Source: Naegleria gruberi
Taxonomy: Eukaryota
Reading direction: 5' to 3' (one strand)
Assembly (NCBI GenBank): GCA_000004985.1
Contig: GG738866.1
DNA length: 64,000 nucleotides
How positions within the stretch are numbered: position 1 is the stretch's first letter; each line of letters opens with the position of its first letter. The position numbers were made by a program, and so were the translations under genes. The notes below the pieces were generated by a model. It saw only the letters and a list, made by a program, of their open reading frames with translations, was not told where the DNA came from and did not search any database. Positions 5,847 through 32,800 of the stretch are shown piece after piece.

Positions 5847-6980
5847 TTAGAAACACTTTCTGTGAACGATACCTGAGCCGGCATCTTCGTATTCCTCTTT
5901 CGTTATCCACATAGATTGAAAGGTCGAAAGTGAGGCAAAGATACTGCCTCCAATCCAGACAGAGTACTTTCTTTCTGGTGGAGCAATAACCGTAATCTTC
6001 ATTAAGGCAGGAGCCATAGCAGTCAATTCCTTGGTCATTCTTTCAGCAATACCTTCGAACATGGTTGTACCACCAGACAAGACAACGTTACCGTACAAGT
6101 CCTTTCTGATATCAATATCGCATTTACCAATTGAGTTGTAAGTAGTTTCATGAACACCAGCAGCTTCCATACCAATGAAGTTTGGTTGGAACAACACTTC
6201 TGGACATCTAAATCTTTCATTACCAACAGTAATGACATTACCATCTGGCAATTCGTATGACTTTTCAACAGATGATGATTCAGCAGCAACCTTCATTTCA
6301 GCTTCAAAGTCCAAAGCAATATAACAGAGCTTTTCCTTAATATCTCTGACAATTTCTCTTTCAGCAGTAGTATTGAATGAATAACCTCTTTCCATCAAAA
6401 TCTTCATCAAATAATCAGTCAAGTCACGACCAGCCAAATCCAATCTTAAAATAGCGTGTGGCAAAGCATAACCTTCATAAATTGGAACAGTGTGGGAAAC
6501 ACCATCACCAGAGTCCAAAACAATACCAGTAGTTCTACCAGAAGCATACAAGGACAAGACAGCTTGAATGGCAACATACATGGCTGGAACTGAGAAAGTT
6601 TCAAACATAATTTGAGTCATCTTTTCTCTATTGGCCTTTGGATTCAAAGGAGCTTCAGTCAACAAGACTGGATGTTCTTCTGGAGCAACTCTCAATTCAT
6701 TGTAGAAAGTGTGATGCCAAATCTTTTCCATATCATCCCAATTGGTAACAATACCATGTTCAATTGGATACTTCAAAGTCAAGATATCTCTCTTAGATTG
6801 AGCTTCATCACCAACATAGGCATCCTTATTACCCATACCAACCATGATTGATTTTTGCTTGGGTCTACCAATAATTGAAGGGAAGACAGCTATTGGAGCA
6901 TCATCACCAGCAAAACCAGCTTTACACATTCCAGAACCGTTGTCAACAACGAGGGCTTGAACGTCTTCACAGAAGGACAT
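5847..6980 (-). CDS. Actin (377 aa, complete, single exon); divergent at several usually invariant positions (for example [14 protein letters not shown] and [10 protein letters not shown])
   Basis: Full-length ORF with unmistakable actin sequence ([17 protein letters not shown]...[17 protein letters not shown]); stop TAA at 5847-5849. Confidence 0.95.
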
Positions 6981-10364: not shown

Positions 10365-11459
10365 ATGGAAGAACACCAAGCTCTTGTAATTGACAATGGT
10401 TCTGGAATGTGTAAAGCTGGTTTCGCTGGCGAAGATGCTCCTCGTGCTGTTTTTCCTTCATTAATTGGTAGACCAAAACAAAGGTCAATTATGGTTGGAA
10501 TGGGAAATAAGGATGCCTATGTTGGAGATGAAGCCATGTCAAAGAAGGGAATCCTCGCTCTCAAATATCCAATTGAGCACGGAATTATCACAAACTGGGA
10601 TGATATGGAAAAGATTTGGCATCATACTTTCTATAATGAATTGAGAGTTGGTCCTGAAGAGCATGGTGTCTTATTAACTGAGGCTCCATTGAATCCAAAG
10701 GCAAATCGTGAAAAGATGACACAAATTATGTTCGAAACCTTTAGAGTTCCAGCCATGTATGTTGCCATTCAAGCTGTCTTGTCCTTGTATGCTTCTGGAA
10801 GAACCACTGGTATTGTTTTGGATTCAGGAGATGGTGTTTCTCATACTGTTCCAATTTATGAAGGTTATGCTTTACCACATGCCATTTTGAGATTGGATTT
10901 GGCTGGTCGTGACTTGACTGATTATTTGATGAAGATCTTGATGGAACGTGGATACAGTTTCAATACCAGTGCTGAACGTGAAATTGTTAGAGATATTAAG
11001 GAAAAGCTTTGTTATGTTGCATTTGATTTTGAAACTGAAATGAAGAAAGCATCTGACAGTTCATCCATTGATACTTCATATGAATTACCAGATGGTAATG
11101 TTATCACAGTTGGTAACGAAAGATTCAGATGTCCAGAAGTGTTGTTCCAACCAAATTTCATTGGAATGGAAGCTGCTGGTGTTCATGAAACAACTTTCAA
11201 TTCTATTGGAAAGTGTGATATTGACATTAGAAAGGATTTATATGCCAATGTTGTACTTTCAGGCGGTACAACCATGTTTGAAGGAATTGCGGAGAGAATG
11301 AACAAGGAATTGACAGCTATGGCTCCAGCCTCAATGAAGATTACGGTTATTGCTCCACCAGAAAATTTGAAAAATAAATCAAATTCAAACATTTTCTTGA
11401 AATTAGATAGAAGTTTGTTGTTGTTGGAAAGCTCGTTGAATATCTTGACCAACTTTTGA
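10365..11459 (+). CDS. Actin paralog with an aberrant C-terminus (3'-truncated actin copy; possibly a pseudogene or neofunctionalised)
   Basis: Actin homology through residue 324 (…[10 protein letters not shown]), ending at nt 11364. The ORF then continues for 39 unrelated low-complexity codons ([31 protein letters not shown]) instead of the conserved [10 protein letters not shown]…HRKCF tail. No splice donor at the break. Confidence 0.8.
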
Positions 11460-13448
11460 ATTAAAACAACAAGATGAACGGCAGTGTTAGATAACATTCT
11501 GGAGATGTATTTATTGTTGTCTTGATGAAGATTGGCCAAGTAAATGATGCATCATTAATGTTAGGAAGCATGTAAAAATTCAACTCGACAATCACTACAA
11601 ATCACTTGAAAAACATTGTCAAAACACCCTTCCTGATGTGGTACAATAACAAATCTTTGTCCTCCCCTTGAAATTGAGCAAATCTGTTCAAAGGTGTTTT
11701 TTGTTTGGTTAAATTATTTTACTTTCATCTTCTCCAGCTCTTTGAATGTACGAATGAAAGTTTTCAAACTTTCTGGGGTGATGTAATTGATGATGAAGAA
11801 CAAGGAAATGATGTTGTTTTTGCTCTACCTGCTGTTGAAGGTGTTGAAAATAATAAAATTAATAAATTGATGAGATGTATTGTTGAGTGGAATTCATCGC
11901 ATTCATTTCAATGTTATTTACAAGCAATAATTAACAATCCATGAAGGTATTAATTCTTCAGTTCAACAAAATTTGCCGTAAATTTAATCTTTGCCTTCCA
12001 AATTTCGCAACTTTTCATAAAATCCACTAAATGTAACTCCTATTGTTCCTATATCATCACACCTTTCTACACGTGTAATATTTACTAGTTTCATCAAGAA
12101 TTGCTCCTGACAATCACCACATGCTGAATAATTTAAAATTATGCTGAGAATTTTTTTTGTCCAATTTTCAACCTATCCACTCCGATAACCGTTACAGAAA
12201 AATATTCTCGGAATTGTATCATCAACACGGTATTCATACTATAATAATTTTTATTGGATTATCATCATAATATTGGGCAATAATAACTTGGAAATTATTT
12301 TTCATTGGATTATCATTGTCCGAACACAAATCTGTTGTTGTACCTTACCATACTAACTTATCTTGATGATTTAAGTAGTTGGATACGGAGACGAACTAAT
12401 TGGATAATCTACACCATGATGATGATTTTGATATTAATAAGGTACTATTATTTAATGTGAGAAGGATTTGATAATTATCAAATAGAGAAGAGTAGATATT
12501 TCGGAGTTTGTAAAATCATGAGAATACATTGCATCACATAATAGTTTCTGATTTGTTATTGCTTGTTGCCATTAGAGAATCAAGAGTGTTTTGCAAATTA
12601 AACATGCAAATTATTGTTTATGCTATTATTACATCCAAACGAACTTTCCGAATAACAAACCACAACTCTGTTTTTTTTGAATTTAAAAAAAGAAATATAA
12701 TAATTATAATAATTCAATTTAATATTTATTTTCATCGAAAAGGGTTAATTTTCATTAAGGAGTGGAATACCAATCTGAATATTGTAAACTTATACAATAA
12801 TAATTGAATGAGGTTTCAATTACTATAATATCTGTTTAACAGACTTTTGTTTAAACAGTTTCCAATCAATGTTAATCCGCCAACTCAAGCATTCTACAAA
12901 AAAGTAATTATAACAATAGCCTCGCTTGCTGTTATCTACAGTTTCGAATATCTTTCAGATTCATCACCCAGGACAAGGGAACGAATCGGCTCATAAAATT
13001 GAAATTACAATATCTTCATATTATCCCTTTCAGTTCATGAAAAAATCTTGGTGAAACCGAATAGTTTACATAAGGAAAATGAAACCAATAATAAAATGAA
13101 AATTAAGACTAAACTAATCCTTATTCGAATGAAGGAATTATGAAAATCTGTACGTCGGACATTTATGGTCCAGTCACTTCTATTCAAACTAAATAAGATT
13201 CAACCGCCGGCAGTTTGTAAAGGACAAGTTTCGAATAGAATTTCCTTACTTGTTTGTCCTATGGGTTTTTTATGCGTGGTTTATATCTTGTTGGGGGTAT
13301 TGAGTAAATCGAATTATAATTAAAGAGTTTCATTACTGTTTAATAACAACCGTTAAAGAAATTGAGTTTTCAATTAAAGACAATTGACAATCGTCAAGTA
13401 TCTTCTTATCATCATTATAAAAAAATCTTGTTAAACTAAGACCTCAGA

Positions 13449-16400
13449 ATGCCTGAAATTCTTGGTAGCACCACTGCTTCAAAGCAAGTGCTTGGTTTAA
13501 ACATTTCTCTATTGGTATGTTTCGCTTACTTTCGTTTTATTTATCAGAATCAAATTATCTTCCAACATCTCATTCACTTCTTCACATTCGCATTCAACTC
13601 CAACAATACTCAATAGAAAGGTGGTACTATCAGTCAAACAATTGTAAGTATATTCTCCTCCTCATAAAAACTTATTCTAATCTCAACAAACTATTCTAAT
13701 CTCCTTTTTTATAAACAACACAATTCAATTAATGAACACAGGTTGGTGCCATTATCACTTCTCTAGTGATTGCCTCCACCGTCGCAACCATCGTTCTCGT
13801 AACCACTGGTATTGGTTACTCTCCACCAGTTGCAGAACTTGACGTTGCATCCACATTCAAACGTGTTCCAGTTACAATCGACGTTCTTCACAATGATCGT
13901 GATCCACGTGGTGGTAATTTGACACTCACTCAAATTGTTTCTCCCCCTTCATTTGGTACAGCTCGTATTTTGTCTCAATCAAAGATTGTTTATCAATCGA
14001 GAGGTGCCTTTATGGGTAATGATTCGTTTAGTTATGAAGTTACTAATGGTTATGCTACTGCTAATGCGACTGTCAGAGTGTCAGTTGTCAATAGACCACC
14101 ACAAGCTGTGCCAATTTATAAAAAGATTTCAAAGAATGCGAACAAGGCATTGATTGATATCTTTAATTATATTGGTGATTCAGATGAAAAGATTTTTGAC
14201 ATTGACAATGATGAATTATTGGCAGTTTCATTTGGTGATCAACAAATTATTAGTGGAAATAGTCATATTGTTGGTTCAATTCAAGTTGATCCATATAATG
14301 GTTATTTGTATACTCCTGTTCCTAATTTTAACGGTATTGAAATGTTTAATTATACCATAACTGATGGAAATGACACTGATTCTTCCACAGTGACAGTTGA
14401 AGTTGACAATGATGCTCCAACTGCTGTTGATGATTATTTCAGAACTCCAAAGTATTCTGGTATCAAACTCAATGTTTTAGCCAATGATTATGATATTAAC
14501 AATGATGAAGTTAACATTACAAATGCCATTGGTGCTGGTTACGGAGCTACTCAAGTGTCAGAAAAGTCAATTTATTATTATACATCATCTGTATTGAATA
14601 CCAAGTATACTGATACTTTCGAGTATAGTATTACTGATGGTCAAAAAGAGGCATCAGCTATTGTTTTCATTGAAGTTTACAATAGGTAAGTTTTTAACTA
14701 TTTTTTGTAATTTTATTTAAAACCCATATATAGTGAGCCAATTGTTTATTCTAAAGTTGTTCAAGTTGCCAAGTCAAGTTCTAACAACACTATTACTGTA
14801 GATTATAACGACCCAGATCGTAAGGATTTAGTCACCGTTTCAAGAATTACACCTGTCTTGTCATCACTCAATCCACCTGCCAAATTAATGTTAGCTAAAA
14901 CTTATGAACAAGTCAGATTTGAATGTTGTGATTGGATCAAGGTTGAAACTAACAATTACACCATTGTTTTTGCTCCAACTCCTGGAATTGTTTACACTCA
15001 AACACTTGACATTGTCATGTCAGATGGTGAAAGTGAAGGAAATGGTAGAATTACCATTCAAGTTGTTAATACTCCACCTGTTGCTGTTGATGATCATGCT
15101 GAATGTAACAAGAATCAACAAATTTATGTTAACGTTGCTGCTAATGACTATGATGTCAATGAAGGTGATACTGCTCTTATTCAATTGTCAAATGTCAATT
15201 GGAATTCCAATACTGAACAAGGTGGTTCCATCACTCGTATCAACTCTACTCATGTACTTTATATTCCAAAGAAGAATTTCTTAGGAACTGACATTGCTCA
15301 ATATGTCATTACTGATCAAAGCAAAGACCAAAATGGAAATCCAGATTCCACAAGTTATTCAACTGGTAAATTAATTGTTCAAGTTGTTAATAATCCACCT
15401 ACTCCTGCTGATGATGAATTCACTATTTCTAAGGGTATTTCATCTGTTTTGAATGTTTTAGATAATGATTCTGATCCAAATGATGGATATGGATCTGTTT
15501 CTGTAATTAATTCTGTTAGTACAAGTTCTATTAAGAATATTTTGGCTAGTATTGTTAAGGGTTCTAAGGATATTCTTGAATATCTTGCTGTCAATGAAGA
15601 ATATGTTGATTTCTTGACATATGACGTTACTGATGCTGATGGTATGACATCTACTTATAAGGCAAATGTCAAACTTAATGTTGTCAATGATGCTCCTGTT
15701 GCTGAAAATGATGTCTATGAAACCAAGTGGAATAGATCTGTCTCTTGTTCTGTCAAGGATAATGACAAGGATATTAATGGTGACTTGTCAAAGTCAACAA
15801 TTTCAATTTCTAAAAATCCAACTCATGGTTCTGTTCAAGTTATTGGTGATTTGGTTACTTACACTCCTTACAATGGATTTGTTGGTTCTGATTCCTTCCA
15901 ATATACTCTTAATGATGGTAGCTCTGCAAATGCCGTGTCAAATGCTGCAACTGTCACTGTCAATGTCATTAACAATGCACCTGTCACTCAACAAGATACT
16001 GCCACCACTCACTGGAGAAACACAGATGGTGTCTTTATCAATCCATTATTAAATGACAGTGATCCAGACAATGATGAAATTGTTCTTTCCAGAACTAGCT
16101 CAACAGATGGCACTTCCTCATTGGTTTCTACCACCTTCCTCAAATTTATTCCAAATCAATCAACTCCTTCCACTGGTGATAAACAAGTTTCTTATACAGT
16201 TTCAGATTGGAATAAGGAAAGTGATGGAAAGATTATTGTAACCATTACAAATACTAAACCAATTGCAAGTGATGATCAATATACACTTCACTGGGCTGCT
16301 TCTGCAACTAATTTGAATGTTTTGGAGAATGATGCTGATCCAGATAGTGATCCAATTAGTTTGGGAAATGTCAAGGGTTCAACAGCAGCTGTCAAGAATG

Positions 16401-19400
16401 GAAATTCTGTCAGTTATACTCCAAAGAAGGATGGTAAGCAAGATACTTTCCAATATTCTGCATTTGATAGAGTTGATTACTCTACTGATGCAACTGTCAC
16501 TGTCAGTTTCACAAATAATGACAAGCCAGTTGCTTCTGACGTTTCCACTACTCTTCACTGGAGAGTTTTTGCTTCTCAATCCAATCAACAAGATTTCACA
16601 GTTTATTCCAAACAAACTGATTTCGATGGTGATAGTTTAACCCTATCTGTCACTGAAACTGCCAACTGTGCCAAGACAACTGACAGCATTGCCAAAGTCA
16701 GAGTTAAAGGTCCAAGCAACCAAGTTGGTACCTATTCCTGCTCATTCTCTGTTTCTGATGGCTTAGACACTTCTGGCATTAAAACAGCAAGTGTCAATGT
16801 CTATAATAATGCTCCAACATGTTCTGACATTGTCGTTGCTTTTAATCCACAATTTGTTGAAAGTGGTCAAACTTATTTATTGGGATCTTCTGTTTCTGAT
16901 GCTGATTCTAATGATTTCCCATTCCTTGCCCCAGTTGATCCAGCAGGTACCATTCAAACAGGTGACATTTTCAGAGTGGACTTGTCAGATGCCAAGAAAC
17001 TTTATTTTAAACCTAATACAAATACTGGTGACAGAAATTATCGTTATAAGGTCAGTGATGGAATTTCCAAATCTGCTGAATGTAACTTTAAGATTATTGT
17101 AAACTCTTTGGATTCTGGTGATTACAATCAAGCGTATGATGTTCATTGGAATTCAACAAATTTCCAAGTTCCAATTTTGGCGCCATTTGTTGGTAAGAGT
17201 ATTACTATAAAGAGTAAAAAGACAAATCCATCACAAGGACAAGCAACTGTTGATGCTGATAATCAAAAGGTTTATTTCACTCCTGCAAGAAAGTTGTACG
17301 TTGATAGTTTTGTAGTGGTTGTGACAGATGGCACTTTTGATAATGATGTGACAGTTACATTGTCAACATATAATACTAATCCAACTGCTTCTGTTCCAAC
17401 ACAAACTATGAATTGGGGAACTTCCAAGACCATCAATCTTTTACAAAATTATGCTGACAAGGATATGACAGATGGTTTCGAATCGATTGGTAAAATTAGT
17501 TCAGTTTCTTCTGCTGTTAAGGGAACTGTTTCACTTTCTGGTAATAACGCCATTTACACTGCTCCAGATCTTTACATTGGAAGTGATTCATTTACTGCAA
17601 CTGCCACTGATGGACTTGCCACTGTCACTTTTACTGTCAATATTAATTTAATTAATTCTGCTCCTATTGTTACTAATAAGGATATTTCAATCCATTGGTC
17701 TAAACATGCCGCTGGATATGCTATTGATTTGTCAACTGGTTCTTCAGATCCTGAAAATAATCCATTGACATTTGCTGTCAGCTCTGCAAGTATTTCACCA
17801 TCAAGTGCTGGAACAGTGACATTTAGTTCACCATCCAGTGGTGTTGTAAAGGCTGGCTCTTCTGTCTATCTTGGTAAATTCACATTCTCCTTCTCTGCAA
17901 GTGACAGATTAATTTCAACTCCTGGTTCTGTAGCTGTCACTGTAATTAATGACATGGCCACACCAATTGCTGATTCTGCTAATGTCCATTGGAGACAAAC
18001 TGGTGTAGAATTGAATCCTATCACTAAATATGAACCTACTTTGAAAGATACAGATGGTGATAGTTTGACAATTAGTGCTGTCAAAGCTCAGAAAGGAAGT
18101 GTCACAATTCACACATCAAAGACTGCCATTGTTTACAATGCTCCTTCAAATGCCATTGGACAAGATGTTGTTACTTATAGATTCACTGATGGTGCTCAAT
18201 CCCTTGAAGATTCCAGAACTGTCGTAAATGTCAATTTATATAACAATGCCCCTTCAGCTGTTGCTCAATCAGCTTCAACTAAATGGCATTTACCTGTCCA
18301 AGTTCCATTGACAAGTGCTTGTACAGATACAGATAGTTGGGATTCTAACTTTGTTACATTCAATGGTGCTGTTTCCAATATTATTGGTGGTTCAGTTTCA
18401 GTTTCTAATAGAATCGTCACCTTTACTCCATCCTTAACTCTTGCTCAATACACCAAATCAGGAGATGTTTACACTGGTACTGCCTCTTTCAATTTCCAAT
18501 GTACTGATGGTTTGGCAACAGCTGTCAACCCAGGTGTCGCAACCATCACTGTCACTAATAATGCTCCAACTGGAACAGGCAAATCTGTCACAATTCAAAG
18601 AGATTATACAAGAACTTCATATGATTTTGCATGGACAGACATGGCTACTTACTCAGATATTGATGGAAATTCTGTTTCCTTAATTAAATTCTCATCATCT
18701 GATTCAGCAATTTCAATTTCTACAATTGGAAATACTATTAGATTGACAACTCCAAGAGATGTCAGAGGTGTCAAGATAATTTCATTCAAATTATTTGATG
18801 GACTTCATGAAAGTACTAACGAATTGAAATTTACTGTTGAATTCCTTAATACTGCTCCAGTTTGTAAAGCTGCATCAGTGTCACTTGCCAAGAGACAATC
18901 ATATGACCTGTCACAATTATTCTCAGCAACTGATGTCAATAATGATGTATTGAGACATACTTTGAGTGGTGCTGTTCCAGCTGAATTTGGTTCAACTTCT
19001 GGAACTGTTTTCACAAGTGCTGCCAGTAGAAGTGGTGTGACAAGTGTCAGTTATACCACAACTGATGGACAAGATACAAGCTCACCTTGTGTAATTACCA
19101 TTACTATTACCAATAATGCACCAATCGCTCAAGACGCTGGTTACAGTTTCAAACCAGATCCTGCAAACTTGATTCACACTTTCACATACACTGCTACTGA
19201 TCCTGATGGTGACAGTTTGACATATTCTTCATCCAGTAATAATTGTGTTTCTGGTGCTTTGGCTACTACTCTTTCTATTTCATCATCTGGTGTTATCACT
19301 TTCAATAGAAAATCATCAGCTGTTGCTGGAGTTTGTACCATGTCAGTAACCGTAGTTGACAATAACAATCCAAGTGCTTCTGACACTGCAACTGTTACAT

Positions 19401-20699
19401 TTACCATCACTGCTACTCCACCAACTGCCAGAGATGATAGATTCCAAATTAATCAAGGTCAAACTATCAGAATTTTCACAAGTCAAATTTTGGCAAATGA
19501 CAATGACGAATATGGTTCAGCAACTTCCTTGACATTTGTTTCTTTCGAATGTCCAGCTGGTTACTGCCACAGTACTCCTAGATTAGTCACTTACAATGGT
19601 CAACAAGCTATTGAACTCGACTCTGATCAAAAGACCTGTCAAGCTGACAAATTCAAATACACAATGCGTACTAATTTGGGAGCTGAACGTCAAGCAGATG
19701 TTTTCATTGAATTCAAGAATTGTTACTGTGCTGCCAAGATTGACTTTGTCTTTTTATACGATTCATCTGGTTCCATTGGTGGAACAAACTTTAACAAAAT
19801 GAGAGATTTAGGTAAACGAATTATTGGAAGAATGCAACTTGCTGAAGATGCCATTAAGGTTTCAATTGTAAGATTCCATTCATCAGGTGTTAGAGCATTG
19901 TCTTTAACTTCTAATGGTGCTACTGTTAATAATACTTTTACCTCCATGACTGTAAGTAGTTTTTTAATAATTTTGTAAAGTATTTAATAATTTAATTTAA
20001 CAATACTAGTATGATGCTGGAAATACTGCAACTATTGCTGGTATGAGAATGGCTGTTGATGCTTTGAGACCTGCTAATGGTGGTAGAGCTGATGCTGATA
20101 AGGTTATTTATGGTATGTTTTTTTATTTGAAAACTTTACAATAATTTACAATTTCTTCTTTTATAGTGCTCACTGATGGTCTCGGTAACGTACCATGTAG
20201 TTGTTCTCAATGTGAAACTGAATGGTCATCCACTCCAAGTGTCTATCCAAAAACAGTTCAACAAGACATTCTCAATACTCTCTCAGGAACTTCAAGAACC
20301 AATGCTCTCCGTAATATGTGTGCTTACCAATTCTCTGATTCATCTGTATTGAATGGAAAAACATGTTCCTATTGTAGTGGTGGTAATGCTGCCTATTGTT
20401 TACCATGTGCTGATGCTGTTCCAATTGCCAAGAAGATTAATAGTTGGAAACGTGATGCTAATGGAATTGTTCCAAATGATCCTGATAATCCATATAATGG
20501 TAATAATAGAGTTCAATGGAAGGTTGTTGCTATGGCTGTTGGTAATGCCATGACTGATGTTTGGGGAGCTAGACAAATTCAAGGTATGAATTATGATGCT
20601 AGTAGAGCAATTACAGTCTCTTGGACTGATTTGTCATCTACAATGAGTGAAATTGTCGATCAATCTTGTAATCAAGTCAATGTTGAAACTGCTCAATAA
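13449..20699 (+). CDS. Giant adhesin-like protein (about 2260 aa): N-terminal hydrophobic anchor, about 20 tandem 95-100-aa cadherin/VCBS-like repeats, C-terminal VWA domain and Cys-rich tail
   Basis: Exon structure: exon 13742-14685; intron 14686-14733 (GTAAGT..TAG, contains an in-frame stop); exon 14734-19951; intron 19952-20009; exon 20010-20112; intron 20113-20166 (GTATGT..TAG); exon 20167-20699. A tentative first exon 13449-13514 (MPEILGSTTASKQVLGLNISLL, donor GTATGT) is uncertain. Repeat motifs V.NNAP.A.DD…N.L.ND.D.DGD…YTP..F.G.D.F.Y…DG; VWA signature DFVFLYDSSGSIGG. Confidence 0.8.
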
Positions 20700-20775
20700 A
20701 TTCAATAACTAGTTTCTAATTAAATAATTAATTCTTTAAAATAATTAAATTAGAAAATTAATTAATAATAAAAAA

Positions 20776-22287
20776 CTATTCAGATTTCCTCCTCTTTTGA
20801 AATTCCAAATAATAAGATTTTCCAGAATGCCAAATCTTGTTATCTTCCAAAGCTCTTTGAACTTGAAATTTATCCAATAATGATGATTCATCAAAATTTG
20901 AATTTCCCATTCGTTCTTTCAATATTGATTCCAATTTATCCTGGAAAAAGTATGCTCTCTTTTTAAAGAGCTTGACAAGTGTTGATTTGTGAATTAAAAA
21001 CTTTGGCAGATGAATATCTGAATAGAGAACATTGATAAATCGAGTGGAATTATCATTAATCTTATCGAATCGATAGAAAAAGAAACCATCATACCGTCCC
21101 ATATCCTTTGGCTCGTGTCCAAACTCTGCAAAATTACCACTGTGTCCAATAATGACATAACTATTAGCCAACTCGTCATGAATACTTGTGTGAACTTGAG
21201 TAATGTCTCTATTCTTAAATCCTGGTAAATTCAAATCCAAAACTCCAACGGAATAATTCATTCCAAGTGAATCTTTAGTTGCTTCCTTGTAATGAATTGT
21301 TCTAATGTCTATCATGTTATCTTTTCCTTCCTCTATGGCAGTGACATGTAAAAAGACTTTCCAAACATCTTCCAATGGATATGGAACGGTCATATTGAAC
21401 TTTGTTAGGTGCATTGCAGTATCGTCCTGGAATACATATTGAGTTTTAGAATAAAAGAATTGAATCGAGTTGGAATTTTTGGAATTTTTGATCATTTCCC
21501 AATCTGGTGAATCTTCCATTAAACTATATCCAAAATAAATATCCTTCTCTGTTATTTCATTAGAATTTAAATGACTAGGTTTAAATCTAAAGTCTACATT
21601 GTAACCTTTCGATGTATCTATTGCTATTTGACGAGTAAAGTTTTCACCTTGTTTCTTCAAGAATGAAAATAACAATTCTGATCTAGAAAACCTTGGAAAT
21701 TGATCACATTTCAAATCAATCTCAATAGAAAGTAGTATATTCCTAAATAAATTATCTGGATTCAACGTTTCGAATACTTGTTCAATTTGTCCAATCAGAA
21801 ATTCAGCTTCTCCAAGAGAATTTGCATTAAACTGAACCGTCACAGATGATCTTCTTTTCAATTGAATTATTCCTGTTGTGGAAGAATAGGATTGACTTCC
21901 TACACTGAAATAGGGTTCAATTTTTTCATCCCAAATTGATAAAACTTCTCTTTTAGAAGATGACAAGTTTAATTCCATATCACTTCCGTTTCGAATGTAA
22001 GTATTCATGATTTGATGAGCTCTTTCGAAAGCCTTTTCACAACTTTTCATTAAATTTTCTACTTGATTCTTTTGGTTTGATTCCGAAGGTAGTTTCGAAT
22101 ATTCATTCCGATAAACTTCTACATCATTTACGAACAATAACGGCTCTTCATTTGATGCTACGGTTTTTAAATAATGAAGAAATAAATCCCTTGCTTCACT
22201 ATTTTCCATCACTTCATCATAGGTTACCACAAATTTACGAGCATCAAATCGTTTAGTGTCATCTTTCAACATTAGTTTTTTAAACAT
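20776..22287 (-). CDS. RGS (regulator of G-protein signalling) domain protein (about 503 aa from the AAAAAAATG start; the ORF extends to 22344)
   Basis: N-terminal region SEARDLFLHYLKTVASNEEPLLFVNDVEVYRNEY matches the RGS box pattern; long single-exon ORF. Confidence 0.6.
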   Translation of the reverse strand: MFKKLMLKDDTKRFDARKFVVTYDEVMENSEARDLFLHYLKTVASNEEPLLFVNDVEVYRNEYSKLPSESNQKNQVENLMKSCEKAFERAHQIMNTYIRNGSDMELNLSSSKREVLSIWDEKIEPYFSVGSQSYSSTTGIIQLKRRSSVTVQFNANSLGEAEFLIGQIEQVFETLNPDNLFRNILLSIEIDLKCDQFPRFSRSELLFSFLKKQGENFTRQIAIDTSKGYNVDFRFKPSHLNSNEITEKDIYFGYSLMEDSPDWEMIKNSKNSNSIQFFYSKTQYVFQDDTAMHLTKFNMTVPYPLEDVWKVFLHVTAIEEGKDNMIDIRTIHYKEATKDSLGMNYSVGVLDLNLPGFKNRDITQVHTSIHDELANSYVIIGHSGNFAEFGHEPKDMGRYDGFFFYRFDKINDNSTRFINVLYSDIHLPKFLIHKSTLVKLFKKRAYFFQDKLESILKERMGNSNFDESSLLDKFQVQRALEDNKIWHSGKSYYLEFQKRRKSE

Positions 22288-22352
22288 TTTTTTCTGAAAC
22301 CAATAAGAAAACTTTGAGAGATTTGAAAACAACTGTAGTGGCAATATCAGTT

Positions 22353-25300
22353 TTATCTAATATACATGTTTGCTTTTGTAACTCCATAATCTGGTACTGG
22401 GAATGTATAAGCCTTGAAAATGTTTGTAACACCACCTACTATACTACCACAATAACTTGTAATGGCTCCACTCTTTGTAGTTGGTCCTCCCAATGAACAT
22501 GTATCAGTACCATAATTACAAGGGCTACCATCTTCAACACGATACAATTCAGTGTCTAATAAGGATGATGCCAATGTTTTACAAACAAAAGAACCACCTG
22601 TTGATAAGGTAGAAATTGAGGCAAGACCATAGTATCCAGTTGGATCTCTCCAAAGAATATCAGAGGAAACATTTCTCAATGCTCCCCACTTGTCATCAGA
22701 GACTGAATAACCATATACATCAACCTTGACATAATCATTCGTTGCTAATGGAATGGCTATATTATTAGTGGTGGTTCTTGATGAAACCAAAGCCCAACCA
22801 CCTCCAAGGTACTCCATATCACAATAAACCTTAAACTTATTCATTGTATCTAATGGTTTCACCCAATAAACACCACTGGCAGCAGATGGAATCAAATCCT
22901 TGTATTCACGACATGACCTCAACACGTTACCAATAAAATAGGCACTATCAAGTGTTTGAAGAGCAATAACAACGCCTGTTGTAGTTGGCACGTATGGCTT
23001 AGTTTCATTGGCGAAATAAATTGAATGAATACTGATTGGAACATTAGGATTAGTTTTTAAAAAGTTTTGAGGTAAATCAACGGAGAATAAATTGAGCTTA
23101 TTGTTTAGAATCAATGTAGAGGTAATACCCATAGTTGGCATTGGTAATTTTTGATTGATATCTTCCCATACTAGAGGATTGCTCTTGAGAGCTCTAGAAA
23201 TTCCCTTCAATTCAGAATAAGTTGGACTAAAACCACCAGTCATGTACAAGTAAGTGTCATCACTAAACAGATTACTTTCTGTGTAAGGGTGAGGAAGAAC
23301 TCTATAACTATTTTGCCAAATCATCTCAGAAGCAGAGGCATACAAAATGTCAGAATTGAGAGCAAGTCTACCAACTCTACCCCCAAAAAGATAAATATTG
23401 TCGCCAATGACTTGAGCAACACCATTATAGATTGCTCTTGGTAGAACCTTTGAAACCTCTTCCCAAATCAATAGGTCGTTTAAATGACATCTCATCACTT
23501 TATATGTTGGGATTGTTGTTCCTCTATCATCTGTTAACCCACCAAAAATGTACAAGTACTCGTCAACAATTGCTAACATTCCTGAGGCAACAGGGTAGGG
23601 TAAAGTTTGATTAAAAATCTGAATAGAGTCAACTGATGTTTTAAGAGCAATTCTATTCGAAACAACATTATTCACAACACCACCAAAGTAAAAAACAGCA
23701 CCGTCCTTTGTAAAGTCGTGGGTATTACAGAAAGAGAAGGCAGCAAACATTTCGTAGGTTGTTTTTGCAATATTCACACTCATATCTGATTTACCAACCA
23801 TAATCATGTCCATATTATCATTAGAAAGGGAGATGAAGTTATTCTCAGAATAGACAATTCTAAGAGAAGACAAATCAAATACTGGAAACACCTTCTCGTA
23901 AGGAACAATGTAAGCGATTGAAAAGATGAATGCCTTAGTATAATAGTTTCTAAACCCAGAATATCCACTGCTAAAGAATGGAACTGAAAATTTACCACCA
24001 GCATAAAATCCCATCTCTCTGTCTTTGTTGTAAGCCAAGATGGCTGATTCTTTCATGATGTGAATTTCATGGACATAATCAAAGCCTGGAGGAGAAAGCA
24101 GAGAATCTGGTGCATACTGTGTTCCGCACCCTTTTCTGCCATAACTTGACCAACTGTAATCGTACCAATAATTAAATCTAGCAAGGCCAAGATTGCAAAC
24201 ATTGTCATCATTTCTACCCCATGCCCATATTGTTTGATCATCTGCCAAGGCAAATGCTTGTTCATTCTTGTGGAATAGCTTGACAATCTTTCTCGACCCA
24301 ATGTTGGTGGTAGAAATTGCAGATGGATTTATGGTTGAAGAACTGACGTCTGTTCCCAACTGACCATTATAATTATATCCCCAACCAAATACACGTCCAG
24401 TATCTAACAGAGCAAGAGTGGATGAATCACCACATTGAAAGTCGATAATACTTGAAGAAAAGTACACAAAAAAGTCAGAGGTAAAATTTGTTGGAGTGCA
24501 CTGAGAAATAACAAAGGTTCCGTTGACCTTTCCCAAGTTATCGTAGGTATATCTGACGTACGAAGAAGTTGGAATACTGTAACTGTCTATTCCTTCACTA
24601 TTCCTTCTTTGCCCCTATTTATAATTGTAAATTAACACATCAATTTGATAACATACCCAATAATACATTACACCTGAAGTGGTTCTTCCAACAGCATGGC
24701 TTTTGCCAAAACAAATCTTGGTAAACTTTAAGGTGTTAGAAATTTTAACAGGTGAAGAAGAAACTGCAGTAGAGCCAGTTCCTAGTTGACATTCAGATCC
24801 TCTTCCCCAACTAAAAGCATAGCCATCACTGTCAAGGTACACTGAATTATATGGTCCAGCATTGATAAAAGTAATGGTATTGGAATGACTCTTGATCTTG
24901 ACAGGATAGGTAACAACACCTTGATAACCAGCTCCAACTTCTCCATTGGCGTTTGTTCCCTGAAATTTCAATGAATAAATATATATAAAACAAAAATGTA
25001 AAAAGGCATGTAAGAACATAAAAACAAAGAATACAAACCCATGAATAGATAGCCCTATTGGTCAATATGAGTACATGTTGTTGACCACATGCAACTTGCT
25101 TAATGTACTCATCAGAGTCGAGAGGTAAATCAACTCGTCCAGGAGCTGGAGTAGCAGGAATTCTTCCCAACGTTGTGGTTCCCCAAGAATAAAGCACTCT
25201 GGTGGCTGGATCTAGGTGGATTCCAAAAGCATCTCCAGTGCACATGAACATTCTCTCCCTTGGTGGTTCAACCTTGGGAGATCTGAAATAAATTGATGTC

Positions 25301-26019: not shown

Positions 26020-26865
26020 TTTTTTAATAGGAAGTGGTGTGATTTCTTCATTAGATAACGTTGCTTGTGCTAACGCACAAATTAAGGCGCTCTATTTAGA
26101 ATGTGGGTACTCTTTTTTTCTCAGTAATTGAGAGCCGTAATCAACAGTGCAAACACCAACTGCCATAATGGCTTGTAATGTCGCGCTCAATGGTCGAGTA
26201 TTGTTGTATACATTCAGCATCATCTGAGAACAATAAATTAATATAATATAAAAATAATAATAACAATTACAGGTATTGAGGGAGCCATTAGTATCTCAAT
26301 TATCATTTTCCATTTCATGAAGTTTCACATTATTGTACATTGATAAGTGAGAGTTTACAGTTTGTAAGGAACATGGATTGATCAAAGAATCTTGTGTTCA
26401 GAGTTAAGAACTAGGGATATCGACATAATGGTTTTGCAATACTCTCTCAATGAGCAACACATGTTTGTATTTTCTTATTCTCCACAGGTGAATGTTCCTA
26501 GCAGCCTTGTTCGTCAAATTGGACAATATCAATTATCTCTCGCCCTTATTATTAGACTATAAATTAATTTTTTGAAAATTGTGTTTGAAAAACCGTAAAG
26601 TCAGTTTGATGAACTAAATATTTCTAATAAGCACTTGGAACTTAAGCGTCATAGATCAAAATGACACTCAAACACAAAATTGAAGTAATTTGTCACTGAT
26701 ACTTTGTGACTGGTGATGGGTTGGTTCGGATTAGTTGCATCTTTCGATATGCGCATAACCTATGCTAACTATTTTCTTCCAAACATGCTCATAGTTAAAC
26801 ATGAAGAAACGATTTCATCACATGCAGATGATGGAAGTTATTCGAAATCTAAACAACAAAAAAAT

Positions 26866-29800
26866 ATGAAGTTCGAAAGGTGTAACATGTTGGGACACGC
26901 AAGTCTCGTGTTATTTCATCTCATCACCTTGTTACTACTACTTTCGAATAGTAACAACAAGTTTATTCACGGAGCAGTGTCATGGAAACAACCAGACTAT
27001 CGAATCACCACAGTCAATCCTCTACAAGTATCAACAAATCCTGAAGGTAACAAACTATACGATTTCAAAACAAATGCTCCCTATGCTATTGATTTTGACG
27101 CACAAGATAACATGTACATTCTCGATTATTCAAAGTGGGTCCTAAAGGTCAATACAAGTAGTGGTACTATAAAAACATTAATGGGAGTTGCTGTAGGTAC
27201 AGAATCTGATGTGGATGGTGTTGATGGAACAACAGTACCTGTTGGATACTTTAAAGACATGTCAGTCAATCCAAAGAGTGGTGAAGTTTATCTTGTGGGA
27301 AACATGAAATTGAAGAAAATTAACACCAATGGTAAAATTTCCAACTATAATGTCAATAATTTTGATGTTACCAATATCTATGGAGATGGTGGAATGGCAA
27401 TCAATTCAAAAGTTTCGGATAATGTTGAAAGTGTTACAGTCAATTCGAAAGAAGAAATTATCTTTTCTGATAAGAACAGAATAAGAAAGATTTTTAATAA
27501 TGGCACCATAACCACAGTAGCTGGTACTGGTTCTCCTAGTGACTCACTCATGAACACTCCAAAGGGTGTATGCACCGATTTATCAAATAACATTATCTTT
27601 ATTGATTGGGGAACGAATAGAATTAAGAAAATTTCAGCAATTGATGGATCAATTTCTGTAGTGGCTGGTAAACTTAATCAAGTCGGTACTTTTCCTGCAG
27701 ATAAATCACTTGCCAATAACACAGCCATTACTCCAGTGAGCATTGCAGTGCATCCTGTGAGTGGTGAACTGTATTTTGCAACAATGTATACTATTTCAAA
27801 AATTGGCTCTGATGGATTGATTTACAGAATTGCAGGAAATGGTTCAATTGGAGTGGATAATACTGTACAAGCAGCCACTAATGCCATGCTTTCTTCAATT
27901 ATTCACATTTCTATTGGAAAGAATTCAGTCTTGTACATGATTGATGGTTTTCGTGTGAGACAAATTTCATCCAATGTTATCACCACACTATTAACTGAGA
28001 GTTCAACTTTCCCTCCTAAATTTGTCTATCATTACAACAGTTATGTTTACTATACAGTGTCATGTCAGATATTGAAATTCCCAGACAATAATCCTTCTGT
28101 TGTTACTACCATTCTTGGATTGAGAGGAACTTGTGTTCAATTTTTTGGTGTTAAGAGACAAGTTGATATGACTCAAAATTACCTCTCCTTTGATGCAATG
28201 ACAGCATTCACAATGTCAGCTTCAACAGGAAGAATGTACTTTTCAAATCCAAGAAGAATGTGGAACATTACAGATGGCTACATTTATCCAATGGTTTACA
28301 ATTATGGTGAGAATATTGATATTAAGGATGGTCTCATTGAAAATGACGCCTCGTCTTGCTTTGATAATTCTGGAAATTTAATTCTTGGAGATAATTTTAG
28401 ATTGAGAAAGTTGAATACAACCTCTCATATAGTCAACTCAATTATTGGTAATGAAAGTCCAATGGTGCCATTTGCTTGTACTGTTGCTCCTAATGGAGAC
28501 ATTTACTTTAAAGATAATCAAGCCATTAAGAAATTGGATGCTTCAACCGGTTTGACAACAACTTTAGATACTGTACTAGCAGATCACAGATCCCGCAATT
28601 ACAAAATCAAGTTATTGCCTTCTGGTGCTTTGATTTATACCGATTTACAATATGTCATTGCTTATTACAACAATCAAAAGACTACTATTGCTGGAAGTGT
28701 AGCCACTGGTCCATTTTCTGGAGAGGGTGGAAGGGCTGTTGATGTTGTTCAAAATGCTTTCCTTGTTGGTTTGACTGCTAACAGTAAGGGTGAAATCTTC
28801 TACTCTGACGAGACTGCCTATATCAGAAAATTAACACCATACTGTAGTGATACTTCAACCTATTTGGATTCAACGGGTACTAAATGTTTGGTTTCCTCAT
28901 GTTTTGGAGTTGATTATAATATTAATTCAGTTTGTTCAGGACATGGTAAATGTGTTTCGAATGATGTTTGTAAATGTAATGATGGCTACTCTGGATTAAA
29001 TTGTGAAAAGTTCACATGTTTTGGCTTGAACAATACAGATCCAAAGGTATGCTCAGGAAATGGAACTTGTGTCGATATTGATTACTGTTCATGTACTTCT
29101 GGTTATCAACCAGAATGTAAAGGTTACGTTTGTTTCGGTTATCCAATGGACAATTTTAAGGTCTGCTCCTCTCATGGAAAATGTATTGGCAATGATAAGT
29201 GTGAATGCGACCCAACTTACAATGGAACCAAGTGTGAAAATTACTATTGCTTTGGTTTATCTGCATCTGATCCTAATGTTTGTAATGGAAATGGAAAGTG
29301 TATAGAAACTGACACTTGTTCTTGCTCATTTGGCTTCCAACCAAATTGTTATGCTCACAAATGTTCAGGAAAGGTCTACAATGACTCATCAGTTTGTTCC
29401 TCAAGTGGTAAATGTGTTGCCGAAAATACATGCATATGTACTAATGGTACCAATGGACCTAATTGTGAATTCCTCTCACTCTTATTGGATATCCAAGGAA
29501 GACCAACTCTCAAAACTGTTGCGAGAATATTCACATTGCTAGGTAATCCTGTCGATAATTGTGCCACTATTTTTGCAAGCAAAGAATTGTCCTATCTTGG
29601 AAATGATCCAATTTGTAAATTTTCAGCTAGTGGTCTGGAAATTATTTTGGGATCTGGTTTCTCAATTGATAATGGAACTTTCTTGCCAACTCAATCATTT
29701 GACGGATGGAAGTATGATTTTAGAGTACAGGCTGGATCTGTTTGTGGTAGCTATGCTCAAACTTCCTTAACTCTCGATTTTAGTTCTCAAACAAACTCTT

Positions 29801-32800
29801 TGCAAAATTTGAATTCGGACACCATTTTGAGAATATCTGAAACTGATTATTCTCAATCATTTGGAAGAAGTATTTCATGGACAGGTCCTTCTGATTTAGT
29901 TCCTCTCGTTTCTCCAAATCAAAAGGTTGTGATCATTCCTAAAGGTTATTGGAAACCAGGAAATAATCTCCCTGTTACAGTCTCCACCAAGACTTCTCTG
30001 TGTGGAACCAATTCGAATAGTAGAACATTTACATTCAAGACTGATTCTACCGCTCCATCCATTGACATCATGACAGACACTCCTTCTGGTAAATTGAATT
30101 GTGTGGGTTATGATTGTTTATTTGAATTTTCTCTTTCACCTGCAGGATCATACTCTGCACAGATCAAATTTGATGGAGATTATTCATTGATTACCTCAAT
30201 TTCTTCAATTCCAAATTTACAAATTGCCAGATTATCAAACTATTATGACAGCACCACTTACTTGGGTGTTAAATATTATGGAACGGTCAATTTACAATTG
30301 CTGTTCAATTCAGTTATTTATTCTTCTACATATCCTATGCAGTATTTGGCATATGAAAGCTCTCAATTATTTATTAATAACTTGAACAGAGGTTTTAGAA
30401 AGGATCAATCTGAATTGACCTTTAGTTTGGTTTCTCAAAATCCGTTACTTCTCACGGTCAATCCAGGAGCTCTTCCAATCACTTACAATTGGACCATCTC
30501 AAGCGGAAACAAAATTATTGGACCATTCTATACCAATTCAATCAGTATTCCTAATCCAGGTGTTGGAAATTATTCTCTTTCACTTCAGGTCAATAACAAT
30601 GATGAATTTAGTGAAACCATTACTGGTACCTTCTCTGTTTTTGACACAGTTGGCGCAATTCCAGATGTTTCAGTAGATAGCTTTACCAATCCATATCCTT
30701 TTATCAAGACTCTTGATTTGACAGCTACTGTAAACTCTACAACATCTGTCAGTCAAATTTATTGGAATGTAATTTCAGGTTCCTTCTACAACTCACCTGT
30801 TCTATCAAACTTTGCATTTTCCCAAAATAATATCAAGACAAGTCTATCCATTCCTGTTTCCTATCTCAAGGAGGGTTCTAATTACGTTTTCGAACTCAGA
30901 GTGACCAACTCTGTTGGAACTAATATTCAAAGATTCAATGTAAAGATGGATTACAATCCTCGTTTCACATGTGATTATTTCACCAGCTACAATTCTTCTC
31001 AATTGAAGGTATATGAATCCAAATTGATAATTTCATGTAGTTCTTTTGAAAATAATATGGCATCATATGTCGTTGATTTGTTTGATGGAGATGTAAAGTT
31101 AATGACCTTGTCAAATACTGCTAAGAGTAGTGTTATTGCTAGATTACCTTATTCTTTGAATGCATTATCATTGAATGTGAGAGGAATTAATAGAAATGGA
31201 TCTTACAGAAAGGTTGTAAAATCAATTACTGGTCCTTTCCTTAATTTCCCTTCTTCTGATCTTTCTGCTAGAGTTTCGTATGTTTCCCAGCAATGGACAA
31301 GTGTGAAAGCTGAGAATATCAAGATGGATACTGCTTCCTCTATTTTATCATTATTGACCTATCTTCAAAATGGTAAACAAACATTCGATGATTTATCAGG
31401 ATTGAGTGATTCATCTAAGCAAACCTTGACAACTGTCATGGTTGAAATGATCTCTGCTTTAAAGTCTATTACAACAATTGGTTATCGTGCTGATGATAAG
31501 ATTTCTGCTGTTCTCCTCTCACCTACCCTTAGAGTTGTCAAACTGGTAAAGACCATCCTGCCAACTGTCTACTCCAATCAAAAGTCCGATATTCAATACT
31601 TGACTAGTTTTATTGTAAAGGGTGTTGAATCTGTGACTTCTTATTATTCAGCTAATATGGTCAGAGCATTGGTTGATGGATTAACCTTCAATGAAACTGT
31701 CTCCCTTGTACAAAATGCTTACTCCTCAGCCGCCACTAGTGGATTATTGGGTCAATTGACCAGATTACAACTCATTCTCAAGCCAGATTTTTCACCATTG
31801 AATTCTGTTTCCTATCAATCACCTCAGGAAATAAGTGGTAAAACAATCACATTGGGAGCTTCCATCTCATTCACATTCCCTTCAAACTTTTACTCACAAA
31901 TTTCCTCATCGGTTCCATTTAGTTTGATCAGCTCTCAGGAACAATCCAATTCCGATGCTTCATCAGCTACTGTAAGCATTTCTCTTTTCAAATCCGATGG
32001 TTCAGCATTTAAGGTTCAAGGATTGACAAGCTTTATTGAAATTGTCTTTGCTGACTTGGTTTTCAAGAGCGAAAATGTTAGTTGTGTCTATTTTGATGAA
32101 GTTTCGAATGCTTGGAGTAGGGATGGATTGATTACTACTCTTGTCAAGAAACAAACAGGTGGATTTAATGTCAAATGTGAAACTAATCACTTGACAGCTT
32201 TCTCTGTTGTTGTCAATGATGCAATCACACCAGTTCAACCAACTCAATCGCCAGCAAAGAGTGGCACCACTACTACAACTACTGACAATACATTGGCTAT
32301 TGTTCTGGGTGTGGTCATTCCTTCTGTTGTGATTATTGCAGCAATTGTCACAGTCATCATTGTTGTAGCAATTGTTTGCATGAGAAAGAAGAAGAAAGGA
32401 CAGTCAACAAATCAACCTAAGCTTACCAAACTTGACAGTGTCTATGAACAACCTAACATATCTGCTTATGAACATTCAAAACCTCATGACATTTTGACAG
32501 ATACTGAACTTTCTGTCATGTCTGATTTCCCATCAAACAATAGCATGTTAATCAAACCATTAATGAGTGTTTACACAAGCACTGGTTCAACATCAAGCAC
32601 TTCTTCTAAATTTGATCCAATGTCCAGATATAAGAATCTTGTTAGAATTGGTCAAGGCGGTTTTGGAAGTGTTTTCAAAGCAGAAGATGCCAAGTGTGGA
32701 AATCAACTCAAAGCCCTCAAAGTTATCAAATATTCATCAGTGGAAGAATTGAACAACATTTTGAAGGAAGGAAATCGTTTAATGAACATTTCACATCCAT

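Follow-up and report, generated by a model that had tools for sequence, protein, structure and literature searches.

A candidate adhesion protein of Naegleria gruberi with twenty bacterial-type cadherin-like repeats, a VWA domain and a predicted N-terminal membrane anchor

What does a protozoan gene whose product consists mostly of cadherin-like repeats of a bacterial kind encode: a surface adhesin, a secreted structural protein, a molecule by which amoebae recognise each other, or simply a piece of bacterial DNA that ended up in a eukaryotic assembly? The question is raised by positions 13,449 to 20,699 of a 64,000-nucleotide stretch of Naegleria gruberi DNA (GenBank assembly GCA_000004985.1, contig GG738866.1; the whole stretch is called the window hereafter, and coordinates are those of the window), which a preliminary description had proposed to encode a large adhesin built from such repeats and a von Willebrand factor A (VWA) domain. 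The answer that we consider reasonably likely is a cell-surface adhesion protein, i.e., a membrane-anchored stalk of 20 domains carrying a metal-dependent VWA head at its tip. Literature searches aimed at the protein family found no description of it, and what is new here is the reading of the architecture and this specific paralogue, orthologues being already on deposit as hypothetical proteins or under the labels “VWFA domain-containing” and “tandem-95 repeat”.

The region holds a single plus-strand gene that, in our hand-built model, comprises six exons and five introns, all of the latter GT..AG (102, 98, 48, 58 and 54 nucleotides (nt); Table 1), and in which three large reading frames (307, 1706 and 177 amino acids (aa)) are joined at canonical splice sites into an unbroken coding sequence of 6891 nt that is translated into 2296 aa. 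Both the start codon (ATG, 13449) and the stop codon (TAA, 20697-20699) coincide with those of the preliminary description, the length of which (about 2260 aa) fell somewhat short, and whose “4-5 exons” with introns of 48-58 bp captured the 48-, 58- and 54-nt introns while overlooking two 5′ introns of about 100 nt and a micro-exon of nine codons. All the splice junctions are colinear with the full-length Naegleria orthologues, the micro-exon (KGGTISQTI) included, and across them the orthologues read MPE.ITLGSTTA..QVVGFNLSLLKGGTITQTIVGG..., ..VYN(T/S)PP.., ..M.YDAG.TA.. and ..KVIY(I/V)LTDG... The N-terminus encoded by exon 1 aligns colinearly with the orthologues from N. lovaniensis and N. fowleri, whose sequences start MPE.ITLGSTTA..QVVGFNLSLL; intron 1 was assigned because the in-frame joining of exon 1 to the micro-exon requires it, and the nine micro-exon residues form the latter half of a juxtamembrane motif, N[LF]SL[LV]K.GT[IL].Q, that is kept across the whole eukaryotic family.

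Most of the protein is a repeat array, in which a profile hidden Markov model iterated on the protein itself delineates exactly 20 contiguous head-to-tail repeats of about 97 aa (each at E 1e-18 to 1e-27), where roughly 20 such modules had been noticed before, and the consensus computed from them (.v.N.aP.a..d.....w...l.nd.D.d.d....y...G.d.f.y..tDg...vtv.v) agrees with the one given at the outset (V.N.AP.A.DD..ND.D.DGD..YTP..G.D.F.Y..DG). The profile matches are far beyond chance: Pfam Big_9 (PF17963) matched with an E-value of 2.6e-129 (17 stretches, 422.9 bits, cut-off 23.6), Cadherin_4 (PF17803) with 5.6e-87 (286.7 bits, cut-off 25.1) and Cadherin_5 (PF17892) with 4.5e-49 (164.7 bits, cut-off 26.5), Cadherin_3 being marginal, and the sole NCBIfam match was NF012211, “tandem-95 repeat” (242.7 bits over 10 stretches for the exon-4 product, cut-off 90; 265.1 bits over 12 stretches for the N. 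lovaniensis/N. fowleri orthologue P0001). The repeats accordingly belong where the preliminary description had put them, with the bacterial cadherin-like/Big_9/tandem-95 family, and not with metazoan cadherins or the ordinary eukaryotic Ig/FN3 domains. The classical Cadherin model (PF00028) and the cadherin cytoplasmic domain found no Pfam match in the protein, and a classical cadherin was rejected on these grounds and because the only hydrophobic segment is N-terminal. The name “VCBS”, which had also been offered, was dropped, as no VCBS model matched at E≤1 in Pfam (PF13517) or at E≤0.01 in NCBIfam (the NCBIfam/TIGRFAM VCBS models).

The copies had been thought to be highly similar and, therefore, prone to copy-number variation, for which we find no support: pairwise identity among them averages 20.5% and reaches 34% at most, neighbouring copies are no closer to each other than distant ones, and Tandem Repeats Finder, run over 12000-22500, detected no repeat at the DNA level, the array being visible at the protein level only. 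The four full-length orthologues from N. lovaniensis and N. fowleri (P0001-P0004) have 20 repeats each, as does a shorter N. lovaniensis paralogue (P0005), and it is this retained count, together with the inter-repeat identity of about 20%, that leaves the idea of a fluctuating array unsupported. Judged by their sequences, the repeat copies are old. The modified last repeat carries three family-invariant cysteines (C1952, C1957 and C1981; the invariants of the family alignment are C50, C55, C79, C107 and C109). A vicinal cysteine pair within the motif FECCD(W/F) was also noted in the enlarged repeat 4 (residues 410-411, window ~14924-14929), and it is kept in all the Naegleria orthologues.

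The VWA domain that had been described behind the repeats is indeed there, with a Pfam VWA (PF00092) score of 65.7 bits (cut-off 23.8; E 7.7e-18; residues 2016-2124, profile positions 1-113 of 174), a VWA_2 score of 39.4 bits (cut-off 27) and a complete metal-ion-dependent adhesion site (MIDAS) motif, DxSxS..T..D (D2022, S2024, S2026, T2091 and D2123), the residues of which are invariant or at least 90% conserved in the aligned C-termini of 18 family members. The Pfam match stops at profile position 113 because a Cys-rich segment interrupts the fold after strand β4, and what had been taken for a “Cys-rich tail” is an insertion of about 112 aa with eight cysteines between β4 and β5, as both the family alignment and the structural model described below place it. 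In the family, the conserved insert pattern (PCSC..C ... C..C ... C.PC) directly follows the β4 sequence V/I-L-T-D-G, and past the insert the VWA picks up again (WK.VAMGVG ... MNYD ... L....IVD..C), both halves of a complete α/β Rossmann-like VWA fold being present.

The VWA module was modelled with AlphaFold2 (AF2) on a 66%-identical N. gruberi paralogue, P0007 (pLDDT 84.2, pTM 0.75); strands 213-220 and 335-342 of this model flank the insert of about 112 residues, and its comparison list includes collagen VI (23-24), the von Willebrand factor A2/A3 domains (about 22-23) and the integrin α1 I-domain (22.1), the vWFA structures of LapA and AhLap being among the fold matches as well. By alignment and model, the Cys-rich segment is an inserted subdomain in a classic MIDAS VWA. 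A comparable mid-fold insertion is present in the vWFA of AhLap, an Aeromonas hydrophila RTX adhesin, where it lies in the distal ligand-binding region and has been proposed to modify binding or to serve as a separate binding domain (PMC12077191). A search of proteins with a VWA-plus-insert profile returned nine mostly fragmentary matches and missed known members, which makes it uninformative for taxonomy; among the top 150 representatives (50% identity) of a library that carries no taxonomy, about 12 matched the whole profile, only eukaryote-type members among them, and the rest were mostly multi-VWA collagen-like proteins.

How would such a protein be held at the cell? A Kyte-Doolittle scan of the whole protein gave a hydrophobic peak at residues ~31-57 (19-residue mean 2.34, the maximum past residue 80 being 1.32), predicted to be a single transmembrane (TM) helix or signal anchor, and no C-terminal hydrophobic anchor, the protein stopping nine residues past the VWA; the RGS gene on the opposite strand ends at 20776, a mere 76 bp past the adhesin gene, which leaves no room for a further exon encoding such an anchor. 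Orthologues and distant members of the family alike have a hydrophobic peak here (positions 26-36), and a tail of about 25-35 aa with the juxtamembrane motif, followed by one TM, is found in at least 16 family members, down to about 30% identity, those from Willaertia magna, EukProt and JGI entries included. The conserved N-terminal tail, the single N-terminal TM and the lack of a C-terminal anchor together point to a stalk that is anchored N-terminally and tipped by the VWA head, and as the most economical reading of the sequence we infer a type II protein, the head of which would be at the far end of the 20-domain stalk.

The main rival, which we regard as rather unlikely, is that the hydrophobic segment is a cleaved signal peptide and the product a secreted matrix or cyst-wall protein, part of an extracellular adhesive or structural layer in the way of the VWA-containing collagen VI or mussel PTMP1. 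Such a protein would be in keeping with the ~14 cysteines of the C-terminal module, which suggest a disulfide-stabilised extracellular protein, and with the short tail having no cytoskeleton-binding motif; a hydrophobic segment of about 26 residues preceded by an N-region of about 31 aa, however, is atypical for cleaved signal peptides, and the retention of the tail motif (N[LF]SL[LV]K.GT..Q) down to about 30% identity is hard to explain if the segment were to be discarded.

In the membrane-anchored reading that we prefer, the conserved tail of about 31 aa would stay cytosolic, the single N-terminal TM helix would serve as a signal anchor and set the type II topology, and the 20 cadherin-like β-sandwich domains would form a rod that, if extended, with about 4-4.5 nm for each domain, would measure some 80-90 nm and that is probably stiffened by Ca2+ at the acidic inter-domain linkers; the membrane-distal C-terminal VWA, with its intact MIDAS, would bind ligands on substrates or prey, and the disulfide-rich inserted subdomain would modify or extend the binding surface of the VWA. 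We infer the adhesive function from the architecture, and the membrane topology, Ca2+ binding, rod length and ligand binding are likewise proposed. The proposed role of Ca2+ has to do with the positions at which the repeats agree: D33 is conserved in all 19 full-length repeats, P7 in 18 of the 19, and N4 and D82 in 17 of the 19 each. The D-x-D-x-D loop resembles Ca2+-binding linker motifs, and the N-x-A-P linker is similar to DxNDNxP, the Ca2+ linker of cadherins. Every RTX extender solved so far is stiffened by linker Ca2+ (PMC7493085), and by analogy, the Naegleria stalk is probably stiffened likewise.

For the fold of the rod, repeats 7 and 8 (R7-R8) were modelled with AF2 on an alignment of in-register di-repeats from the window protein, its eukaryotic relatives and bacteria. 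The model is all-β (pLDDT 95.9, pTM 0.84), and Foldseek against the PDB matched it to tandem β-sandwich modules, the cadherin-like modules of Staphylococcus aureus SraP giving the best superposition (TMq 0.58) and the other matches comprising bacterial endofucoidanase Ig-like C-terminal domains, the extender of the AhLap adhesin (6XI1) and many metazoan cadherins (e.g., N-cadherin, Pcdh15 and Cdh23), the likeness to which, as far as the model goes, is at the fold level only. When the PDB was searched by sequence, the exon-4 product matched a VWA only and no close solved repeat, and the repeat profile gave nothing but weak matches (endofucoidanase Ig-like domains at 1.6e-7, an “RTX protein” at 3e-4 and KIAA0319L PKD domains), so no close structure has been solved.

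The cadherin-like fold, and the metazoan cadherins among the Foldseek matches, could speak for homophilic cell-cell recognition, whereby the repeats would trans-dimerise between amoebae (e.g., during mating or aggregation) and the VWA would be an accessory; some heteroloboseans (the acrasids) do aggregate, whereas adherent multicellular stages are not known from Naegleria. What makes this alternative improbable is, besides the missing match to the classical Cadherin model, that the bacterial relatives of the repeats are extenders and not binding sites (PMC7493085), and that the family is most conserved at both its ends (the tail/TM and the VWA module) and not in the membrane-distal repeats.

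The membrane-anchored adhesin that we favour over both of these also has points weighing against it. Its topology is read from hydropathy, and the N-terminal hydrophobic stretch may be a signal peptide that is cleaved off; inspection of the 31-aa tail found no recognisable cytoskeleton-linking motif such as NPxY; and the structure of its VWA was modelled on the 66%-identical paralogue rather than on the window protein. Compared with the bacterial tandem-95 repeats, moreover, the eukaryotic ones have fewer acidic positions (E18 is replaced by W or K, D12 is kept in 36% versus 91% in the bacterial ones, and N30/D31 in 40-48% versus 95%), and with these positions lost, Ca2+ occupancy may be lower than in the bacterial extenders.

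Where, then, did the repeats come from? Most of the 2174 matches at E≤1e-10 are bacterial-type proteins, and R7-R8, a near-consensus pair, is 30-39% identical to bacterial repeat pairs, i.e., as close to them as, or closer than, to its sister repeats. A comparison of 507 repeats from eukaryotic family members with 1931 from the bacterial matches found a core common to both (N4, P7, D33, D35, D37, Y64, G72, F76, Y78 and D82) and a consistent difference at position 18, where the eukaryotic repeats have W (52%) or K (26%) and the bacterial ones E (74%), positions 17-18 thereby reading H-W versus (D/N)-E. As a shared derived character, the H-W signature argues for a single old eukaryotic repeat lineage and not for recent or repeated transfer. 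An ancient bacterial origin of the repeats by horizontal acquisition is plausible. The signature could also be usable to tell eukaryotic members from bacterial ones in metagenomes. The gene otherwise differs from those of bacterial tandem-95 surface proteins in being eukaryotic, with introns, in having repeats that are about 20% identical to each other, as opposed to the near-identical arrays in several of the bacterial matches inspected, and in joining its array to a predicted N-terminal TM anchor of eukaryotic style and a Cys-rich VWA module, the latter seen only in the eukaryotic members examined.

Could it nevertheless be a bacterial contaminant, or a bacterial gene that arrived only recently by transfer, is not functional and was taken for a eukaryotic one? 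In favour of this, the great bulk of the repeat family is bacterial, and NF012211 is a model used for prokaryote annotation. The reading frame, however, needs five canonical GT-AG introns; the G+C content at third codon positions (GC3) is host-like, at 0.22 versus 0.24-0.35 in the neighbouring genes, that is, at or just under their low end and typical of this AT-rich genome; actin, RGS and receptor-kinase genes and a Naegleria-type telomere flank the gene; colinear orthologues of about 2310 aa are present in N. fowleri and N. lovaniensis; and the derived H-W signature is absent from bacterial repeats. These observations effectively refute contamination, to which we would assign next to no probability, and with its introns, its telomere and its actin, RGS and kinase neighbours the adhesin gene is truly eukaryotic.

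Among known systems, the RTX adhesins of Gram-negative bacteria (MpIBP, LapA, AhLap, MhLap, SiiE and FrhA) are alike in having a surface-held N-terminus, a β-sandwich extender array and distal C-terminal ligand-binding domains, and the distal region of LapA and AhLap includes a vWFA, the one of AhLap with its mid-fold insertion (PMC7493085, PMC12077191). The extender and the distal VWA of this layout are present in the Naegleria protein, with a TM helix predicted from hydropathy only as the N-terminal anchor, whereas the RTX nonapeptide model (HemolysinCabind, PF00353) found no Pfam match at E≤1, and a type I secretion system signal and a retention module are missing from a protein that ends nine residues past its VWA; the epithet “RTX-type” of the preliminary description would fit the proposed layout only. 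Dictyostelium SibA-E are, by description, amoeba surface proteins that resemble the Naegleria protein in ingredients (bacterial-type adhesin repeats, a VWA and cysteine-rich sequence) and in probable role, and they serve Dictyostelium as its main receptors for adhesion to substrates and particles (PMC9453864, PMC9197732). The Sib proteins, however, have type I topology: their TM is C-terminal, and the cytosolic tail behind it carries talin-binding NPxY motifs, whereas the Naegleria protein has a predicted N-terminal anchor, no C-terminal TM and no NPxY, which would make the layout of integrins and Sib the reverse of its own. No Dictyostelium protein was among the 120 matches listed. Reviews consider Sib to be restricted to dictyostelids and to be the sole eukaryotic proteins with such bacterial repeats and a VWA, a statement to which the heterolobosean family is, by its architecture, an exception. 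Apicomplexan TRAP/MIC2 and the integrin α I-domain proteins are of type I, with a VWA near the N-terminus, and have neither a cadherin-like array nor the 112-aa Cys-rich insertion; an integrin β, which would call for a β I-like domain (Integrin_beta) together with PSI and EGF stalk domains, was rejected as well.

Naegleria has no recognised integrins, and its adhesion molecules are known only as “integrin-like” bands that cross-react with antibodies on immunoblots (Jamerson et al. 2012); attachment to matrix and cells is part of the pathogenesis of the brain-eating N. fowleri. The family is a concrete, testable candidate adhesion receptor for Naegleria, with a defined metal-dependent head as a possible target for antibodies, point mutations and chelators, and it would add a second eukaryotic case of bacterial adhesin repeats combined with a VWA, in a supergroup very distant from that of Sib and facing the other way in the membrane. 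Of the bacterial-like genes examined in the amoebozoan Vermamoeba, a tandem-95 homologue had the highest expression, which was interpreted as gene trafficking (PMC7125106), and this expressed gene and the Naegleria family together suggest repeated or ancient adoption of bacterial extender repeats by bacterivorous amoebae. A bolder proposition, which we put forward as doubtful, is that in heteroloboseans (Naegleria, N. fowleri included, and Willaertia) and some unidentified eukaryotes the family might be the principal substrate and prey adhesion receptor, an N-anchored chimera of bacterially derived extender repeats and a eukaryote-type MIDAS VWA that a cytosolic motif of 30 aa would couple to actin; if true, the family would have evolved, independently of integrins and Dictyostelium Sib, into a functional analogue of both with an inverted topology.

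Table 1. Features of the candidate adhesin gene and of its neighbours, in window coordinates.
Feature	Position	Strand	Remarks
Exon 1	13449..13514	+	Start codon and first 22 residues of the conserved N-terminal tail (MPEILGSTTASKQVLGLNISLL)
Intron 1	13515..13616	+	102 nt, GTATGT..CAATAG; junction backed by orthologue colinearity
Exon 2 (27-nt micro-exon)	13617..13643	+	9 codons, KGGTISQTI
Intron 2	13644..13741	+	98 nt, GTAAGT..ACACAG
Exon 3	13742-14685	+	Opens with the predicted TM helix
Predicted single TM helix / signal anchor, residues 32-57 (VGAIITSLVIASTVATIVLVTTGIGY)	13742..13819	+	Start of exon 3; from hydropathy
20 tandem cadherin-like / tandem-95 repeats, residues 54-2007	13808..19717	+	End of exon 3, intron 3 and most of exon 4
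Intron 3	14686-14733	+	48 nt, inside the repeat array
Exon 4	14734-19951	+	Holds most of the repeat array
Repeat 20 (modified last repeat), residues 1903-2007	19403..19717	+	Followed by NCxC, the motif with which the VWA domain opens
VWA, N-terminal half, residues 2008-2124	19718..20180	+	β1-β4; crosses intron 4, exon 5 and intron 5
Intron 4	19952-20009	+	58 nt, inside the N-terminal half of the VWA
Exon 5	20010-20112	+	Within the VWA domain
Intron 5	20113-20166	+	54 nt, inside the VWA region
Exon 6	20167-20699	+	Ends at the stop TAA
Cys-rich insertion, residues 2125-2236	20181..20516	+	~112 aa, 8 Cys; between β4 (VLTDG) and β5 (WKVVAMAVG)
VWA, C-terminal half, residues 2237-2287	20517..20699	+	VWA ends at the invariant C2287; followed by the 9-residue C-terminus and TAA
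Actin gene	5847-6980	-	Pfam Actin; between the telomere and the adhesin gene
Actin gene	10365-11459	+	Pfam Actin; partial profile match, may be divergent or truncated
RGS-domain gene	20776-22344	-	Tail-to-tail with the adhesin gene, 76 bp apart
727-aa open reading frame	22353-24536	-	RCC1 and Kelch repeats and a short fibrinogen C-terminal domain match; unusual combination
2234-aa single open reading frame	26713-33417	+	Teneurin-like NHL and EGF, TM-like region, C-terminal protein kinase; receptor kinase ~6 kb downstream

The family is conserved in Naegleria and Willaertia. The best full-length matches of the window protein are from N. lovaniensis (54% identity over 100% coverage, 2314 aa) and N. 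fowleri (53%), the latter species having two orthologues, and nothing in a collection of 5.8 billion sequences is more than 54% identical to it overall, which indicates that the window paralogue, or the species, is so far absent from the protein sets that were searched. From N. gruberi, the database has only two members of this subfamily, P0007 (1515 aa, 13 repeats, no micro-exon) and P0008 (1343 aa, 10 repeats); their internal junctions are abrupt, and both are probably the outcome of faulty gene prediction and not genuinely shorter proteins. Naegleria and Willaertia magna also have longer paralogues (about 3400-3560 aa), several of them with a C-type lectin domain. Further afield, one homologue is surrounded by RGS, Arf, MORN and ankyrin genes on a metagenomic contig of 253 kb, and another, P0024, sits on a 6.8-kb JGI contig (L001) that ends in an AATAAA signal, a poly(A) run and adapter-like sequence (6740-6840); the AATAAA and the poly(A) mark the latter as environmental mRNA, meaning that transcription of a family member yields a mature message free of introns. 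About 1 kb from the homologue P0013, on a metagenomic eukaryotic contig unrelated to the window, there is also an RGS gene (L003 6316-6966, minus strand), which may be chance or conserved linkage with the RGS neighbour listed in Table 1.

At the other side of the adhesin gene, the two actin genes matched Pfam Actin at E 3.5e-145 (5847-6980) and 1.1e-120 (10365-11459), and the window itself begins with a (CCCAAA)n array. As TTTGGG is the candidate telomere repeat of N. gruberi (PMC3622300), the gene would be located some 12 kb from a chromosome end. The array is present twice in the same orientation, at 1-370 and 1006-1387, with about 585 bp of unique sequence and a gap of 50 Ns (956-1005) in between, and this doubling looks as if two telomeric contigs had been joined in scaffolding, or else as if a telomere tract were in an interstitial position.

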